Virus record (IMG/VR): IMGVR_UViG_2617270968_000004
Reading direction: 5' to 3' (one strand)
DNA length: 28,946 nucleotides
From: a virus
Taxonomy: Duplodnaviria > Heunggongvirae > Uroviricota > Caudoviricetes
Made by a program: the position numbers and the translations under genes. The notes under the pieces were generated by a model. It had not been told where the DNA came from. It made no database searches and saw nothing but the letters and a program-made list of their open reading frames with translations. Shown one piece after another: positions 16,184 through 28,946 of the stretch; the stretch's first letter is position 1; each line of letters begins with the position of its first letter.

Positions 16184-16766
16184 ATGTTACTTAACTGGCA
16201 GGGACGCCACTTCATGGAAATAAATCACTCACGAATAACATCGTACGAGATTGCGGATTACATGATCCGCACTAAATCTCTTCTATCAGCGAAAGAACTC
16301 GCAGCAATTCTTGAAAAGGAATACCCGCATCTGGATGTCGATAAGCGCGATGTTTATCTGCGCTTACGAACGAAAGCGTGAAAATAACTGGTCAGTGCTG
16401 GAAGCAGCTGAATTCATCGAGGCGCATGGCGGAAAAGTGCCGCCCCTGATGCTGGAGCAAATCAAAGCCGATCTGCGTGCTCCTAAGACCAATACCGATG
16501 ATGAGGAAAGGCAAACAGCCGTCGGTGGCCCTTCTCTTGAAGATCTGGACAAAGTTGCGCGAGAACGGGCCGCCAACCGCCGCGCCGATGCCGCATTGTG
16601 GATTGAGCAGCGTAGGGAAGAAATCGCCGATATCGTTGATACAGGCGGTTATGGAGATGTTGATACTGAAGGTGTATCAAACGACCCATGGCTGGAACAA
16701 GACCTGGACGAAGACGAGGAGGAAGACGAAGAAGTTACCCGCAAGCTATACGGGGATGATGATTAA
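16184..16766 (+). pseudogene. Candidate late gene (small-terminase or late-activator position) split across two frames
   Basis: ORF 16184..16381 (frame 2) and ORF 16311..16766 (frame 3, TTG-started in the track, acidic C-terminus [11 protein letters not shown]). A single +1 shift near 16375 would join them into about 190 aa; the stop overlaps the pacB start (TAATG). Confidence 0.3.
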
Positions 16767-18250
16767 TGGCCAGAAGTTGCGTAACGGATCCACGTTGGCG
16801 CGAGCTGGTGGCGCTATATCGTTATGACTGGATTGCTGCCGCTGATGTTTTGTTCGGCAAAACACCTACCTGGCAGCAGGATCTGATTATTGAGTCTGTG
16901 CAGGAACAGGGTAGCAAGACATCTGTTTCGTCTGGTCACGGTACCGGGAAATCAGACATGACTTCTATCATGATCATGTTGTTCATAATCATGTATCCCG
17001 GTGCCCGCGCCATTATCGTTGCGAACAAAATTCAGCAGGTAATGACCGGTATATTCAAGTACATCAAGATAAACTGGGCTACTGCCACCAGCCGTTTTCC
17101 ATGGCTTGCTGATTATTTTGTTCTGACAGAAACCGCTTTCTATGAGGTTACTGGTAAAGGTGTATGGACTGTAGTACCGAAGGGCTTTCGTCTGGGAAGT
17201 GAAGAAGCTCTCGCCGGTGAACACGCAGATCATCTTCTGTATATTATCGATGAAGCCTCCGGTGTCAGTGATAGAGCTTTCGGTATCATCACCGGTGCTC
17301 TTACCGGACAGGATAACCGCATCTTATTGCTGTCACAGCCTACACGCCCAAGCGGCTATTTCTACGATACACACCATAAACTGGCCAAGCGTCCTGGTAA
17401 CCCTGATGGCGTTTATACGGCGATCACGCTTAACAGTGAGGAATCACCGTTGGTAACGCCAGCATTTATCAAAATGAAGCTGGCGGAGTACGGCGGGCGT
17501 GATAACCCTATGTACATGATTAAGGTACGCGGCCTATTCCCTAAATCACAGGATGGCTTCCTTCTTGGACGTGATGAGGTTGAACGTGCAACGCGGCGGA
17601 AAGTCAAGATTGCCAAAGGATGGGGCTGGCTTGCATGTGTGGACGTTGCTGGTGGTACGGGACGGGATAAGTCCGTTATCAATATCATGATGGTGTCCGG
17701 CCAGCGAAATAAACGCCGTGTAATCAACTATCGAATGCTGGAATACACAGACGTTACAGAAACGCAGCTTGCCGCCAAAATTTTCGCAGAATGTAATCCT
17801 GAGCGATTCCCAAATATCACCATAGCGATAGACGGCGATGGCCTGGGTAAAGCAACGGCGGATCTGATGTACGAGTATTATGGTATTACCGTACAGCGTA
17901 TACGCTGGGGTAAAAAGATGCATAGCCGTGAAGATAAGAGCCTGTACTTTGATAAACGTGCTTATGCCAACGTTCAAGCCGCAGAGGCCGTAAAATCTGG
18001 TCGTATGAGACTGGATAAGGGTAATGAAACTATTGAGGAAGCGTCGAAAATCCCTGTAGGGATTAACTCCGCAGGTCAATGGAAGGTGATGAGTAAGGAG
18101 GATATGAAGAAAAAACTCAACCTGCACTCACCAGACCATTGGGATACATATTGTTTCGCTATGCTGGCGGATTATGTTCCCCAGGATGAAGTGCTTAGCG
18201 TCGAAGACGAAGCGCAGGTTGATGAAGCTCTGGCATGGCTTAATGAATGA
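16766..18250 (+). CDS. pacB: Terminase large subunit PacB
   Basis: 494 aa (the P1 PacB length as I recall it); Walker A-like GHGTGKS near the N-terminus; translational coupling to the upstream ORF. Confidence 0.8.
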
Positions 18251-18253
18251 ATA

Positions 18254-18270
18254 TTTGCTCTAATAAATTG
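18254..18270 (+). promoter_or_regulatory. C1 operator (TTTGCTCTAATAAATTG)
   Basis: 15/17 match, 4 bp after the pacB stop. Confidence 0.55.
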
Positions 18271-18395
18271 TGTTTTTTAACTACCGATGTTACATTGAGC
18301 CTGACCTCTTGCGCCTTGAGGCATTTTCGGTTTATGCTTATCAGGCACCTCATTAAAACGGGTGCCGGGATTGGCCTCCCGCTTAAGTCTAAGGC

Positions 18396-18425
18396 GATAC
18401 AGACGCCGCTCGCGTCTTTTTTTTG
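18396..18425 (+). terminator. Rho-independent terminator
   Basis: Stem AGACGC/GCGTCT with 5-nt loop followed by T8 (18418..18425). Confidence 0.6.
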
Positions 18426-18589
18426 TATCGGCGTACACGCACACCTCTACAATGGTGGGCTGTATGGGGCTACCTTCGGGTAGGCTGGTTACCTTGGACG
18501 CCAGTAAGGCCAACTCCGTACAGTCCACCGCCAGCAAGATTGGTCTCTTCTGCGGTGGTTACATACCAACGTCTAAGGAGGCTGCCAAT

Positions 18590-18811
18590 ATGGCTACTAT
18601 CCCTATCCCAACTCATCCTGAATTTATCTGGCGCTTTTACTCCTGCCAAAAACGTCACTATCACTTCGTTATTGCACCGACAGAAGATGAGGCCCGCTCT
18701 CAGCTTCCTGACGCCCCATGTATTTTCTCTGCCCGTTTTTCCACTGATTCACGCAATTCTCTCAGTTACTGGTGCCTCCCTGTTAACGCTTCTGCTCAGG
18801 AGGGACTATGA
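18590..18811 (+). CDS. icd: Icd-like small protein (73 aa) translationally coupled to the antirepressor gene
   Basis: ATG 18590 preceded by AAGGAGG; 73 aa, the P1 Icd length as I recall it; stop overlaps the ant start (ATGA). Confidence 0.5.
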   Translation: MATIPIPTHPEFIWRFYSCQKRHYHFVIAPTEDEARSQLPDAPCIFSARFSTDSRNSLSYWCLPVNASAQEGL

Positions 18812-19926
18812 GAACGTCATTAGTCACCCGTGAAGAGATGATCGAGGCAATTGAACAGCACACTGCCTGTATCAGTACCAGGGATATACCAGGCGTTATT
18901 GCCAACTACTTCATGATCACCAAACAACTTTACCGGAGAAAGGACAAGAACGCGGTTCACCGTATCCTGTTGTCTGATATCCGCGAATACCTGCTCGAAC
19001 AGGGTCATCTGAATTACGCAACCGCCGCAGCCGAAGCACGCAAGGAGGCACACAGAATGAAAGCAACTAACGTTAAATCAGAAAAAATTCATGCACCTTC
19101 AGTTCAAGAATCGGAGCTGGTGGTTGTTCAGAATCAGTCTGATGAAATTCCCGTTCTGGAATGGCAGGGAGTGCGTGTAGTGACAACCGAGACTCTTGCT
19201 AGAGGGTATGGGACAGAAACAATCCGTATTCGCCAAAATCATCATGAGAACAAAGTACGCTTTGTTGAAGGGAAGCACTTTTTCAAAGTTGAAGGAGAAT
19301 CATTGCGCGAGTTGAAGCACAGAGTAGCTTTAAACTACTCTGTAAAAATTGCTCGCAATGTTCGCTCACTCACCCTCTGGACAGAACGCGGCGCAGCCCG
19401 CCACGCTAAAATGCTCGAAACCGATCAGGCATGGGCATTCTTTGAAAAACTGGAAGACAGCTACTTCCGACAAAAAGAACAGCAACCGATCGCAATCCCC
19501 CAGACGCTTCCTGAAGCCCTACGCCTGGCTGCCGAACTGGCTGAACAAAAGCAACTTCTGGAACAGAAAGCCCACCAGCTAAATCAGCAGCTGGTGGCCG
19601 CCGCTCCTAAAGTCGATTTTGCCGACCGGGTATCAGTAGCTAAAGGGATCCTGATTGGGAATTTTGCAAAGGTTGTTGGACTTAAACAAAACGCGCTGTT
19701 TGTCTGGTTACGGGAGAACGGCATCCTGATAGCGTCCGGTGGACGTAAAAATGTGCCGTTCCAGCAGTACATCAACGCGGGGTATTTCACGGTGAAAGAA
19801 GTGGTGCTGGATGATGAAGATGGCTACCAGATACGGTTGACGCCTCAATTAACGGGTAAAGGCCAGCAGTGGTTGACGCGTAAACTGCTCGATGCTGGCT
19901 TGTTAAAACCGGTGGCGGCTGAATAA
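18808..19926 (+). CDS. ant: Antirepressor Ant1-like (ORF6N plus KilAC/Ant domains), with in-frame internal Ant2-like start at 19057
   Basis: 372 aa; central VLEWQGVRVVTTETLARGYG... and C-terminal VDFADRVSVAKG...FVWLRENGIL antirepressor-type regions; internal in-frame ATG 19057 has its own AAGGAGG, giving a 290-aa product. Confidence 0.6.
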   Translation: MRTSLVTREEMIEAIEQHTACISTRDIPGVIANYFMITKQLYRRKDKNAVHRILLSDIREYLLEQGHLNYATAAAEARKEAHRMKATNVKSEKIHAPSVQESELVVVQNQSDEIPVLEWQGVRVVTTETLARGYGTETIRIRQNHHENKVRFVEGKHFFKVEGESLRELKHRVALNYSVKIARNVRSLTLWTERGAARHAKMLETDQAWAFFEKLEDSYFRQKEQQPIAIPQTLPEALRLAAELAEQKQLLEQKAHQLNQQLVAAAPKVDFADRVSVAKGILIGNFAKVVGLKQNALFVWLRENGILIASGGRKNVPFQQYINAGYFTVKEVVLDDEDGYQIRLTPQLTGKGQQWLTRKLLDAGLLKPVAAE

Positions 19927-19958: not shown

Positions 19959-20810
19959 TTATTGCGCGCTTTCGGGGTTGTCGTTTACTGGCTGCCCCTT
20001 CTTGGTTTTACGGCTGCGCGTAACTGATGCGGCTGACTTAACCTTTTTCTCTTCGCGAGTGATGGCAATTTGTTTTTTTACATTTTCAATATCTGCCAGG
20101 CGATATATTTTTGCTTGCGGCCAGCGGTCGCAGATGATCGGTTCTATGGAGTCATAAAGGCTAAATTTTGCTTTTTCGAATTCACCGTTGATGATAATTC
20201 CATCACGGAGAGTTTCATCGCAGATAAACACGCCACACAGTGGCACATGGTAACTAACTGATTTACCATCATTGTAGTTAGGGCTACTGGAAATGTAGTG
20301 GACGCGCAGCATTGTTTCGCTAAAGCCGTGTACGCGCATACGGAATTTTTCATCCTCCGGGTACTGCTTCATTAGCTCTTTTGTTGCTTCCAGGTTCTCT
20401 ATGTATTTCGCACTGTGCTCATTGATCCCCGCGCTTTTTTGGATGCGAATGTCCTTATCAATCAGATGAATAATGCGGCCAGCGGTCATGTTGACGCTGT
20501 TCACAGCTTCTGTCTGATAAGTTGTAACCTTACGCACACCGCGAAGGATGTTAGGCACTGGATATAAAATAGTCTTTGGGATATTGAGGTCTGGGTACTG
20601 TTCCAGTTCCCGCGCCATTAAAGTCCATTTATCAATTTCAGCCTGAATGCTGTCAGTTTCTTTGAACGGTAGAACGACAACCGGGCGTACAGGACGACCG
20701 TCGCTGGCTGTATCAACGTGTTGGGCGCGTGCAACAGCTTTTTTTAGAAAGAGATCCCTGAAGCTGACGAACTCCTGGTACAGTTGTTCGCCGTAGACAT
20801 AATTTATCAT
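19959..20810 (-). CDS. c1: C1 repressor of lysis (P1-type primary repressor)
   Basis: 283 aa, the P1 C1 length as I recall it; its cognate operators are scattered through the window and coi lies immediately upstream. Confidence 0.8.
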   Translation of the reverse strand: MINYVYGEQLYQEFVSFRDLFLKKAVARAQHVDTASDGRPVRPVVVLPFKETDSIQAEIDKWTLMARELEQYPDLNIPKTILYPVPNILRGVRKVTTYQTEAVNSVNMTAGRIIHLIDKDIRIQKSAGINEHSAKYIENLEATKELMKQYPEDEKFRMRVHGFSETMLRVHYISSSPNYNDGKSVSYHVPLCGVFICDETLRDGIIINGEFEKAKFSLYDSIEPIICDRWPQAKIYRLADIENVKKQIAITREEKKVKSAASVTRSRKTKKGQPVNDNPESAQ

Positions 20811-28008: not shown

Positions 28009-28946
28009 CGGTAGATTCAATTGGTCAACGCAACAGTTATGTGAAAACATGGGGTTGCGGAGTTTTTTTGAATGAGACGAACATTTACAGCAGAGGAAAA
28101 AGCCTCTGTTTTTGAACTATGGAAGAACGGAACTGGCTTCAGTGAAATAGCGAATATCCTGGGTTCAAAACCCGATCTTCACTATGTTTAAGGGATACTG
28201 GCGGCATAAAACCCCCATGAGCGTAAGCGGGCTGTAGCTCACCTGACACTGTCTGAGCGCGAGGAGATACGAGCTGGTTTGTCAGCCAAAATGAGCATTC
28301 GTGCGATAGCTACTGCGCTGAATCGCAGTCCTTCGACGATCTCACGTGAAGTTCAGCGTAATCGGGGCAGCCGCTATTACAAAGCTGTTGATGCTAATAA
28401 CCGAGCCAACAGAATGGCGAAAAGGCCAAAACCGTGCTTACTGGATCAAAATTTACCATTGCGAAAGCTTGTTCTGGAAAAGCTGGAGATGAAATGGTCT
28501 CCAGAGCAAATATCAGGATGGTTAAGGCGAACAAAACCCTTTGTCATGCAGCTCCACCGATTTTGAGAACGACAGCGACTTCCGTCCCAGCCGTGCCAGG
28601 TGCTGCCTCAGATTCAGGTTATGCCGCTCAATGCGACGGTCGCATAGCCTTCGCCATGGCAGGCGTCATACCCGCAAAGGCGAAAGAGGTACGATTAACA
28701 TAGTGAACGGAACACCAATTCACGAACGTTCCCGAAATATCGATAACAGACGCTCTCTGGGGCATTGGGAGGGCGATTTAGTCTCAGGTACAAAAAACTC
28801 TCATATAGCCACACTTGTAGACCGAAAATCACGTTATACGATCATCCTTAGACTCAGGGGCAAAGATTCTGTCTCAGTAAATCAGGCTCTTACCGACAAA
28901 TTCCTGAGTTTACCGTCAGAACTCAGAAAATCACTGACATGGGACA
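28009..28946 (+). mobile_element. IS30 copy (partial; runs off window end)
   Basis: IS30 end GTAGATTCAATTGGTCAACGCAACAG..., then transposase coding sequence [34 protein letters not shown]... Confidence 0.8.
28071..28946 (+). pseudogene. insI: IS30 transposase (InsI-like) with frame disruptions
   Basis: Frame from ATG 28071 stops at about 28188; homology resumes in other frames (LRDTGGIK, HERKRAVAHLTLSEREEIRAGLSAKMSIRAIA..., later GERGTINIVNGTPIHERSRNIDNRRSLGHWEGDLVSG...), implying several indels and a divergent stretch around 28550..28650. Confidence 0.65.

Follow-up and report, generated by a model that had tools for sequence, protein, structure and literature searches.

A predicted c4-type antisense control module between pacB and c1 in a P1-like phage-plasmid

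Does the sequence ahead of an icd-like gene in a P1-like phage-plasmid encode an antisense RNA, and does this locus correspond to the immI region known from P1? The window is the whole stretch of 28,946 nucleotides that was analysed, a Caudoviricetes record of IMG/VR (IMGVR_UViG_2617270968_000004). A preliminary description, made by reading the sequence, had proposed a structured leader and, after the model of P1 immI, a control region with a c4-like antisense RNA. The proposal of a c4-like region was borne out by a covariance-model match, by complementary partner sequences and by covariation among relatives. Positions 18254-19926 very probably constitute a complete c4-type, immI-like antisense control module. 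A c4-type switch that keeps an anti-repressor gene silent is a known kind of RNA switch. The likeness to P1 immI holds for the kind of module, but not for its place. The module in the window is an additional, unannotated c4/immI-like copy with its own recognition sequences and is not the canonical immI.

Location and layout of the module

The order of the module is C1 operator, leader, c4, icd-like gene, and ant (Table 1). It is inserted between pacB (16766-18250) and c1 (19959-20810, minus strand), two genes that only 24 bp separate in P1. The C1 repressor gene (611.6 bits) adjoins it. Canonical immI lies between sim and kilA-repL, and the module in the window is flanked by pacB and c1 instead. 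In relatives, canonical immI was found elsewhere on the same contig as the insert (L026 with L060, L036 with L081, and L049 with L066). The insert is present in 279 of 5,426 complete E. coli genomes (about 5%). In the closest GenBank phage record, the regulatory RNA gene, the four target sites, and the terminated leader are all unannotated. RefSeq plasmids label the c4 region as a partial "ash family protein" pseudogene and annotate no RNA there.

Table 1. Features of the module, in window coordinates
Feature	Position	Strand	Details
C1 repressor operator (Op51/Oc4-like), predicted	18254-18270	+	TTTGCTCTAATAAATTG, 2 mismatches to consensus
C1-controlled promoter (P51a/P2c4-like), predicted	18268-18296	+	-35 TTGTGT 18268-18273, 17-nt spacer, -10 TACATT 18291-18296
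Second promoter (P51b/P1c4-like), predicted	18309-18338	+	-35 TTGCGC 18309-18314, 18-nt spacer, -10 TATGCT 18333-18338, start near 18345
IsrK-type leader RNA with a1 and b1	18345-18424	+	hairpin 1 (18345-18365), hairpin 2 (18366-18381), single-stranded b1, intrinsic terminator
a1 site	18371-18377	+	TTGGCCT, loop of leader hairpin 2; 7 pairs with a'
b1 site	18387-18394	+	GTCTAAGG; 8 pairs with b' including one G·U
Intrinsic terminator of leader	18401-18424	+	stem 18401-18417 (AGACGC-CGCTC-GCGTCT), T run to 18424; called by terminator scan
c4 antisense RNA, predicted mature form of about 76-77 nt	18454-18530	+	GGU... to ...CCACC(G)
c4 outer stem P1	18454-18469 with 18514-18529	+	family structure
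c4 helix P2, UUCG hairpin	18470-18483	+	CUACC-UUCG-GGUAG
c4 hairpin P3	18484-18505	+	10-nt loop carries b'
b' recognition sequence	18492-18500	+	CCUUGGAC(G), in the P3 loop; 8 pairs with b1, 9 with b2
a' recognition sequence	18507-18513	+	AGGCCAA, single-stranded junction between P3 and P1 3' arm; pairs with a1 and a2
Alternative hairpin CCACCGC...GCGGTGG	18525-18558	+	base 18525-18531 with 18552-18558; a2 in loop
a2 site	18540-18546	+	TTGGTCT; 7 pairs with a' including one G·U
b2 site	18570-18578	+	(C)GTCTAAGG, 9 pairs with b'; overlaps icd Shine-Dalgarno
icd Shine-Dalgarno	18575-18581	+	AAGGAGG; first four bases overlapped by second GTCTAAGG
icd-like gene, 73 aa	18590-18811	+	NCBIfam NF033153 phage_ICD_like 49.8 bits (cut-off 25); ATG 18590
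ant, predicted anti-repressor, 372 aa	18808-19926	+	Pfam ANT/KilAC 107.9 bits, ORF6N 70.1 bits

The ant product is 56% identical to P1 Ant1 (E = 3e-130), and the stop of icd overlaps the start of ant (18808-18811). Ten C1 operator-like sites are present in the window, against 0.2 expected. In P1 immI, the annotated operator Oc4 holds the same position relative to the leader as the operator predicted here. Two promoters can be proposed by comparison with P1. The candidate that overlaps the operator corresponds in position to P2c4, a promoter annotated in P1 whose -35 likewise overlaps the operator. The other is suggested by the spacing between the -10 and the start of the isrK match, which equals that of P1. 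In P1 (L002), the annotated P1c4 -10 is at 619-624, 7 nt before the first isrK-model position (631), and in the window the isrK match begins at 18345, 7 nt past TATGCT. A generic sigma-70 scan of 18100-18900 called no promoter on the plus strand, the P51a- and P51b-like candidates included.

The leader and the c4 RNA

The structured leader that had been proposed upstream of icd is real, and it can be described more closely as an IsrK-type a1/b1 leader that ends at a terminator. The Rfam isrK model (RF01394) matches it over its full length (1-77 at 18345-18422), with the 3' terminator included, at 60.8 bits (cut-off 50). The c4-a1b1 model (RF03163) gives 20.5 bits at 18332-18385, which is below its cut-off of 46.7. 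Elsewhere this model scores 51.0 for P1, 55.5 for P7, and 48.1 for Gifsy-1, so that the leader in the window, unlike that of P1, scores as isrK and not as c4-a1b1. The c4-a1b1 architecture was found in the window. There are two hairpins upstream of c4, a1 is in the loop of the second, b1 is directly 3' of it, and both are complementary to c4. The fold of two hairpins and a terminator is common to the window, L022, and Gifsy-1. The energy fold of the P1 leader yields only hairpin 1 and the terminator, and the hairpin with a1 in its loop is visible in the Rfam alignments. Hairpin 1 has one compensated pair among relatives, and the stability of the leader fold is ordinary (z = -0.96). The terminator had been placed at 18396-18425 and was confirmed as a stem followed by a T run. 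In the isrK model it corresponds to the 3' hairpin, and its stem is invariant in the window family. In P1 and Gifsy-1, a different hairpin with a U-run stands at its place. As for membership in the IsrK group, ant is on the same strand, after c4 and icd, and would be co-transcribed with them.

The c4 region matches the Rfam C4 model (RF01695) over its full length (1-87 at 18448-18535) with 75.9 bits (cut-off 45, E = 2e-13). Its minimum free energy structure (MFE) is the three-helix structure of the family (-41.8 kcal/mol, z = -3.85), and 0 of 200 shuffles fold as well. In 22 relatives, all 27 pairs of the stems are 100% paired and 9 of the 27 are compensated. The UUCG hairpin had been taken for a separate stem of the leader. 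It is present, but it forms helix P2 of c4. The ends of the mature RNA are predicted by analogy with the annotated 77-nt P1 c4 and with the GGT RNase P site (PMC5320573). The sequence has a GGU at 18454 and, past the outer stem, a G-CCA resembling that of tRNAs (18530-18533). Processing by RNase P at GGT and occlusion of the ribosome-binding site by b' have been summarised for this kind of RNA (PMC5320573).

Target sites and their covariation

The preliminary description had reported the octamer GTCTAAGG at 18387 and 18571, the latter overlapping the icd Shine-Dalgarno. Both copies were found and they are the target sites b1 and b2. The partner that had been sought for them is CCUUGGAC (18492-18499), in a loop of c4. 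An exact reverse-complement search misses this partner because of one G·U wobble. A second recognition pair, made by the sites a1, a', and a2, goes beyond what had been described earlier. The CCACCGC/GCGGTGG stem was also found, and it presents a2 in its loop. Its 5' arm doubles as the 3' arm of the c4 outer stem. This alternative hairpin (-14 kcal/mol, z = -2.7) also forms when the whole transcript is folded to its MFE. Pairing of its 7-bp base is complete (100%) in 22 relatives, and one of the pairs is compensated. P1 has an analogous CCUGC/GCAGG hairpin around a2 (z = -4.1). All of the sequence elements listed earlier are present within 1-5 nt of where they had been placed.

There are three copies of GTCTAAGG in the window against 0.44 expected, two on the plus strand (18387-18394 and 18571-18578) and one on the minus strand (28846). 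The copy at 28846 was rejected as an extra target, being without an a-type site upstream, and is probably due to chance. The composite TTGGYCT-N(5-35)-GTCTAAGG occurs exactly twice in the window (18371-18394 and 18540-18578), against 0.01 expected. A scan of viral contigs for the composite target gave at least 120 matches, mostly single and scattered, and was uninformative because 15 specified bases and a wide gap let chance dominate. The duplex of b' with the b2 region has an energy of -14.5 kcal/mol, which was reached by 3 of 500 shuffles. The other energies were matched by shuffled targets more often, with 33/500 for b':b1 and 35/500 for a':a1, and that of a':a2 is not significant (141/500). 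Duplex energies alone are only modestly better than those of shuffled targets.

The pairings can be followed through evolution. The 33 distinct relatives compared represent at least 12 recognition types, and despite many double substitutions each of the four pairings is retained in them at 99-100%. Within the window family, with its 22 distinct sequences, a1:a' is 99.4% paired and b1:b', a':a2, and b':b2 are each 100% paired. Counts of cells overstate the number of independent events, since many sequences in the alignments are closely related. The pairs in which both sides changed number 4/7 for a1:a', 4/7 for a':a2, 3/8 for b1:b', and 3/8 for b':b2. Slid registers in the same family, used as a control, are 29-50% paired. 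The P1 family (11 sequences) is 100% paired, with both sides changed in 6/7 of the b pairs and 2/7 of the a pairs. These pair counts come from family-specific alignments, as a joint MAFFT alignment of both families misregistered the recognition segments by 1-2 columns. In a best-run search, TTGAGGC in the promoter region had been taken as a1 for two types, and it was replaced by the homologous a1 from the alignments. Variable columns are concentrated in the six sites (24/42, against 20/220 elsewhere, p = 2e-11). Covariation of this kind proves pairing, but not whether the pairing is in cis or in trans.

Each of the at least 12 recognition types is matched to its own targets. In a cross-type matrix, each type pairs at full length on its own targets (7-8; 6 for Gifsy-1 b':b1). 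The c4 of the window pairs with at most 4/8 (b) or 5/7 (a) positions on the targets of any other type. From these sequences, the type in the window is predicted to be orthogonal to the others, canonical immI included. None of the other types compared, P1 and P7 included, shares its recognition sequences. Thus, the second module should act independently of a canonical immI on the same kind of replicon.

Several known systems can be compared with the module. The annotation of P1 immI has the same layout point for point, with operator, two promoters, a1, b1, c4, a2, b2, icd, ant1, and the 4-nt overlap. In the immI of P1 and P7 (Citron & Schuster 1990; RF01695), as in the window, a1 and a2 are in hairpin loops, b1 follows a1, and b2 is on the icd Shine-Dalgarno. 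A terminator-like hairpin is found between b1 and c4, b' is in a c4 loop, and a' is in a junction. The a sites are 7 nt long and the b sites 7-8 nt in both. The sequences themselves differ. The a site is UUGGYCU in the window, UUGACAG in P1, and UUAGCAG in P7, and the b site is GUCUAAGG in the window, GUUAGUG in P1, and GAUUGUG in P7. Each of the two downstream pairings in the window contains one G·U, many compensated positions distinguish the c4 stems from their P1 and P7 counterparts, and the Ant of the window has an ORF6N domain in its middle part. P22 also has a second immunity region, immI, where the sar antisense RNA limits the synthesis of the ant anti-repressor. The sar RNA is a true cis-antisense RNA transcribed from the opposite strand. 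In the window, by comparison, one strand encodes both the regulator and its targets, and the pairing is made by two short, discontinuous stretches. Pairs of isrK and C4 upstream of ant or of regulatory genes are also present in Stx-converting and other lambdoid phages. These loci are 78-79% identical in nucleotides over 18346-18622 of the window (leader, c4, and a2/b2), and one such lambdoid-type record (LC710661.1) annotates both RNAs. Their downstream genes and phage type differ from those of the window.

The closest experimental parallel is Gifsy-1 (Hershko-Shalev 2016, PMC4825925; RF01394). There, isrK overlapping c4-a1b1 is followed by C4 and the anti-repressor, a layout like that of the window. 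As predicted for the window, a terminated short form and a read-through form occur, and a1:a' pairing joins the leader to the c4 region. Gifsy-1 differs in being a lambdoid prophage without a C1 operator, in its recognition sequences (a UUGGCGU, b AUCACCG), and in having no icd, so that b2 is directly on the anrP Shine-Dalgarno. In the published model, 'orf45' is the name given to the c4 region, and c4 does not figure (PMC4825925). The pairs that were compensated experimentally, G28:C162 and G31:C159 (PMC4825925), map exactly onto a1:a'. The module of the window and the Salmonella IsrK/"orf45"/STnc1160 system are of one kind.

A proposed switch and its alternatives

Transcription would start downstream of the C1 operator, from promoters placed as in P1. 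The intrinsic terminator, whose structure and sites are described above, may stop part of the transcripts and free a short leader RNA of about 80 nt. The read-through RNA contains the c4 gene and its fold, and a cut by RNase P before the GGU, as in P1, would give an RNA of about 77 nt. On the mRNA, c4 would pair b' with b2 and a' with a2, in line with the complementarity and covariation of these sites. Since b2 covers the start of the icd Shine-Dalgarno, icd would not be translated. Since ant overlaps icd by ATGA and would depend on its translation, ant would be silent too. Biere, Citron, and Schuster are said to have found in 1992 that c4 pairing in P1 also causes premature Rho-dependent termination. 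The sites a1 and b1 carry the same sequences as a2 and b2 and covary with c4 equally well. They could compete for c4, either in cis, within read-through RNA, or as the short leader RNA acting in trans, and relieve the repression. A decoy role of a1/b1 in P1 was proposed by Citron & Schuster 1990, as quoted in supplement 1 of Weinberg 2010. In Gifsy-1, the one system where such an activity has been demonstrated, IsrK in trans activates translation of the anti-repressor about 140-fold and a1 mutants have no effect (PMC4825925), a measured trans-activation that matches the decoy role proposed here. The cis a1 mutants of Gifsy-1 raise basal expression (PMC4825925), which a pure decoy model does not predict.

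The same pairings could occur in cis only, as a conformational switch of one transcript ('inactive structure A') with no diffusible antisense RNA, refolding as modelled for isrK-orf45-anrP. When 18345-18600 is folded, the MFE structure (-99.5 kcal/mol, z = -3.7) contains a1:a' and b1:b' as cis pairings, and the c4 fold is opened. In Gifsy-1, native gels gave two conformers, and cis mutations in a1 or a' shifted both the conformer and expression (PMC4825925). This reading appears rather unlikely as the whole explanation. The c4 of P1 and P7 is a processed 77-nt immunity RNA that acts in trans (P1 GenBank annotation; PMC8546580; PMC5320573), and a processed RNA of about 80 nt, STnc1160, accumulates in Salmonella (PMC4825925). 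The c4 fold is itself conserved with compensated pairs. In addition, a2/b2 covary with c4 as tightly as a1/b1 do, which a cis a1:a' model alone does not need. The cis switch and the trans antisense are compatible, and one does not exclude the other. It is improbable that the region between the terminator and icd is coding sequence, with an 'Ash'/orf45-like upstream ORF from AUG 18452, in frame with icd, controlling icd and ant by its translation in place of an RNA gene. The frame from 18452 is open into icd (ORF 18362-18811), and its conceptual translation matches Pfam Phage_ASH (34.6 bits, cut-off 26), in keeping with the RefSeq label. Tagged ORF45 was detected in Salmonella, where anrP expression required its translation (PMC4825925). 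Against this, stop codons interrupt the frame in P1, the type system, 18452 is without a preceding Shine-Dalgarno, and Gifsy-1 ORF45 matches no family. Substitutions between subfamilies keep the base pairs, with the 9 compensated stem pairs 100% paired, and the Gifsy-1 paper notes that nucleotides are conserved while amino acids vary (PMC4825925). The c4 region may have both an RNA and a coding function.

The chance is slightly smaller still that the leader acts mainly on host genes, as a trans-acting, Hfq-binding small RNA like IsrK, and that its likeness to a c4 target is secondary. The name and match of the isrK model point in this direction, as does a terminator that would release a discrete RNA of about 80 nt, and IsrK was originally found as an Hfq-associated small RNA of islands (PMC2330248). 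However, the only variable blocks of the leader among relatives change in step with c4, the sole demonstrated IsrK target is the adjacent c4 region (PMC4825925), and the rest of the window has no composite a-b site. There is next to no likelihood that the octamer repeat is due to chance or to the Shine-Dalgarno, with the hairpins as ordinary intergenic terminators and no antisense function. AAGG is Shine-Dalgarno-like, the copy of GTCTAAGG at 28846 is partnerless, and the duplex energies of single sequences are modestly significant. This reading is already refuted by the covariation counts, a triple covariation over at least 12 types. It also does not agree with Rfam matches above their cut-offs, with a composite site that occurs twice, or with the close agreement with annotated P1 immI.

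With the antisense reading preferred, we lean slightly towards a fuller account of it. The leader may be a true anti-antisense (sponge) RNA, in which the terminated RNA of about 80 nt titrates c4, and decoy, antisense, and mRNA would make up a three-RNA switch. The IsrK/'orf45'/STnc1160/AnrP system would be the P1 immI machine under other names. Plasmids that bear the insert would run two orthogonal switches. The specificities would come from an a × b combinatorial code, diversified by selection for heteroimmunity.

The meaning of the window is mostly one of annotation, as an unannotated RNA gene, its targets, and its leader are present in about 5% of complete E. coli genomes. The placing of the Salmonella IsrK system in this kind of module joins two separate literatures, and the IsrK experiments are a functional test of a1/b1, which are called "putative" in the P1 work. 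The at least 12 matched antisense and target specificities form a natural set that might be used as orthogonal RNA regulators. In many P1-like phage-plasmids there is a second anti-repressor module under predicted antisense control, for which cross-talk with canonical immI is predicted to be absent. This second module bears on superinfection immunity and on the co-residence of plasmids that often carry resistance genes.

Genomic setting of the module

The window belongs to a P1-like (Punavirus) phage-plasmid. Positions 1588-24863 match Escherichia phage vB_EcoM-673R5 at 97.8%, and P1, P7, SJ46 and RCS47 likewise match window DNA. P1 has 24 bp between the pacB and c1 stops, whereas 1.7 kb is inserted there in the window. 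An ant insertion at this place has been described as "two short hypothetical orfs and … ant … as in RCS47", with RNA not mentioned (PMC6906374). The insert was found in 279 of 5,426 complete E. coli genomes (>=80% coverage), mostly on ~97-kb plasmids. RefSeq labels there include Icd-like and KilAC proteins, and the closest phage record has no RNA annotation at the module. In relatives, the module and a canonical immI (the P1 immunity operon) were found together on one contig (L026 with L060, L036 with L081, and L049 with L066).

The window has 10 operator-like sites (0.2 expected), among them the C1 operator proposed earlier. The other nine, with 1-3 mismatches, are at 2021, 5645, 5694, 7786, 16097, 20905, 21369, 21452, and 23491. 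This dispersal fits P1's dispersed C1 regulon.

The ALIL pseudoknot is the frameshift signal of IS3-family transposases. A match (RF01497, 119.4 bits) lies at 1139-1255 on the minus strand. Since 1-1587 is not common to P1-like relatives and holds this match, the left end of the window probably carries an insertion sequence.

Coordinates of the module, its neighbors and the corresponding Gifsy-1 elements
Feature	Position	Strand	Remark
pacB	16766-18250	+	upstream of module, same strand
C1 operator	18254-18270		
-10 TATGCT	18333-18338		7 nt before first base of isrK match
isrK match (leader)	18345-18422		RF01394, 60.8 bits (cut-off 50)
a1	18371-18377	+	TTGGCCT; pairs with a'
GTCTAAGG, first copy	18387		
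Terminator stem	18401-18417		followed by T run
C4 match	18448-18535		RF01695, 75.9 bits (cut-off 45)
UUCG hairpin	18470-18483		c4 helix P2
b'	18492-18500	+	CCUUGGAC(G); 10-nt loop of P3
a'	18507-18513	+	AGGCCAA; single-stranded junction of c4
CCACCGC/GCGGTGG stem	18525-18531 with 18552-18558		
a2	18540-18546	+	TTGGTCT; pairs with a'
GTCTAAGG, second copy	18571		
icd SD (AAGGAGG)	18575-18581		ahead of ATG 18590
c1 repressor gene	19959-20810	minus	convergent with module, which lies upstream; NCBIfam phage_rep_C1, 611.6 bits
Gifsy-1 c4-a1b1	34329-34277	minus	Rfam
Gifsy-1 isrK	34316-34240	minus	Rfam
Gifsy-1 C4	34214-34131	minus	Rfam; anti-repressor anrP next

Leader, c4 RNA and pairing sites

The preliminary description had suggested a c4-like antisense control region upstream of icd. 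Its observations were confirmed, and this interpretation is supported by Rfam, by partner sequences that could be located and by covariation across relatives. The C4 and isrK covariance models both score above their curated cut-offs. The isrK match is the a1/b1 leader. It has two hairpins, with a1 in the second loop, then single-stranded b1 and the intrinsic terminator that had been noticed. Rfam holds c4-a1b1 (RF03163) as a separate family, published with C4 (Weinberg et al., 2010). The isrK and c4-a1b1 models overlap in coordinates in P1 and in Gifsy-1; the two families thus stand for a single kind of element. The window leader is below the c4-a1b1 cut-off (20.5 vs 46.7 bits), so by score it is classed with IsrK-type a1/b1 leaders and not with RF03163.

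The c4 region folds into the three helices typical of its family (-41.8 kcal/mol, z = -3.85), and the UUCG hairpin is part of this fold. The octamer GTCTAAGG is present twice, the second copy overlapping the icd SD, as had been stated; the first copy is b1 and the second b2. Both copies pair with b' through one G·U, and because of this wobble the exact reverse complement of GTCTAAGG is absent. The composite a-then-b target occurs exactly 2 times in the window (0.01 expected). A third GTCTAAGG (28846-28853, minus strand) has an ATG directly after it. No a-type site was found in its upstream sequence and its ATG opens a 3-codon frame only; it is probably there by chance.

The CCACCGC/GCGGTGG stem exists, and the full transcript contains it when folded to minimum energy. 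No T run follows it, so in the window this stem is no terminator. The c4 outer stem supplies its 3' arm as the 5' arm of this stem, whose loop holds a2. At the base of the stem, all 7 bp are 100% paired and one is compensated. The P1 counterpart is a CCUGC/GCAGG hairpin around P1's a2 (z = -4.1).

An open frame in the icd frame (18452-18589; compare L086, 1402-1515) runs from the AUG at the c4 5' end through c4 into icd. Translated in silico, this frame hits Pfam Phage_ASH (PF10554) at 34.6 bits (cut-off 26) over profile positions 49-107, and the RefSeq annotation over c4 is a partial "ash family protein" pseudogene. The P1 equivalent of the frame contains stop codons. Some of what the Phage_ASH family models may be translated c4 RNA genes, or the region may have two functions.

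Covariation of the recognition sites

The comparison set contained 80 loci from viral contigs, obtained via the icd region, together with P1, P7, and Gifsy-1. At least 12 recognition types were found among the 83 c4 copies, and b1/b'/b2 and a1/a'/a2 co-vary in every type. Pairs were counted in register-correct alignments of the pacB-c1 insert family (22 distinct sequences) and the canonical immI family (11 sequences). In the former, a1:a' is 99.4% paired and b1:b', a':a2, and b':b2 are 100% paired, with 3-4 pairs per helix changed on both sides; slid registers are 29-50% paired. In the latter, all four helices are 100% paired, with 6/7 b pairs and 2/7 a pairs changed on both sides (slid registers, 34-54%). 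Many of these sequences are close relatives, so such cell counts overstate independent events and the matched types, at least 12, are the more honest measure. Variable columns in the immI alignment make up 24/42 in the six sites and 20/220 elsewhere (p = 2e-11).

Single-sequence duplex energies give a modest gain over shuffled targets: b':b2, -14.5 kcal/mol (matched by 3/500 shuffles); b':b1, -12.4 (33/500); a':a1, -11.9 (35/500); and a':a2, -8.9 (141/500). The decisive evidence for the pairings is comparative covariation, not duplex energy.

The a and b alleles are combined in many ways (pacB-c1 family, 5 combinations; immI family plus P7, 7; loci L004-L084). Along the DNA the sites run a1 b1 ... 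b' a' ... a2 b2, so an a-only or b-only change needs three coordinated changes, which no single crossover gives. The single unpaired cell is L080 (1191-1477), where a1 (TTGGAAC) differs in type from the a' (GTCTCAA) and a2 (TTGAGAC) of the same locus, while the three b sites agree. Its leader looks recombinant, and the locus would offer a natural way to test whether a1 acts as a decoy. Two contigs each carry two c4 genes close together. In L027 they are identical copies of the window type, at 1358 and 2924, separated by 1,566 bp. In L079 a window-type copy at 1358, with truncated icd, is followed 1 kb later by one at 2363 that joins a P1-type b' to a P7-type a'. In L019 (1100-1520), the pacB interior runs straight into ...CCAACGTCTAAGGAGG-icd: b2-icd is kept, and the operator, leader, and c4 are absent. 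If real, this would be ant without antisense control.

IsrK, P1 immI and the proposed mechanism

The IsrK/"orf45"/STnc1160/anrP locus of the Salmonella prophage Gifsy-1 (NC_010392.1, 34076-34329, minus) is a c4-type module. With the isrK match starting at base 1, IsrK G28 and G31 fall in a1 (UUGGCGU) and "orf45" C162 and C159 in a' (ACGCCAA). Thus, the compensatory pairs G28:C162 and G31:C159 (Hershko-Shalev et al., 2016; PMC4825925) are a1:a' pairs. What is called the "first AUG of orf45" (+107) is the AUGG that is conserved where c4 begins, and the ~80-nt processed STnc1160 corresponds to c4. P1 and c4 are not mentioned in that paper, a 2025 review has IsrK and c4 as separate entries, and Rfam places isrK outside the C4 clan; none of the three makes the link.

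The window layout follows the P1 GenBank annotation point for point (operator Oc4/Op51, P2c4, P1c4, a1, b1, c4, a2, b2, icd, ant1). Promoter positions are putative, taken from positional homology only, with the -10 placed like that of P1c4. Icd was identified by NF033153 and Ant by Pfam ANT and ORF6N; the latter is 56% identical to P1 Ant1. The icd/ant overlap is ATGA, and P1 ant1 likewise overlaps icd by 4 nt. In P1/P7, translational repression of icd reportedly also gives premature Rho-dependent termination, a finding ascribed to Biere, Citron and Schuster in 1992.

In P1/P7, RNase P cleavage at a GGU motif releases a c4 of about 77 nt from the operon transcript (the annotated P1 length is 77 nt); b' then blocks the ribosome-binding site, and specificity is increased by a' (PMC5320573, PMC8546580). 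In the window, c4 would be processed at G18454, and its outer stem is followed by a tRNA-like G-CCA. The leader could act as a decoy for c4, and Ant would act on C1. Competition of a1/b1 with a2/b2 for c4 has been proposed (quoted in Weinberg 2010, supplement 1). IsrK given in trans activates ~140-fold and a1 mutants do not, which fits the decoy idea, whereas a1 mutations in cis raise basal expression in Gifsy-1 and do not fit it simply (PMC4825925). The main rival or complement to a trans-acting c4 is a conformational switch in cis. The energy-preferred fold of transcript 18345-18600 has a1:a' and b1:b' paired in cis with c4 unfolded, and covariation alone does not separate cis from trans pairing; we regard the switch acting alone as rather unlikely.

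The window c4 reaches at most 4/8 (b) and 5/7 (a) consecutive pairs on any other type in the pairing matrix, which predicts no cross-talk. The module is a second, previously unannotated copy of a well-known kind, with a recognition type unlike those of P1 and P7.
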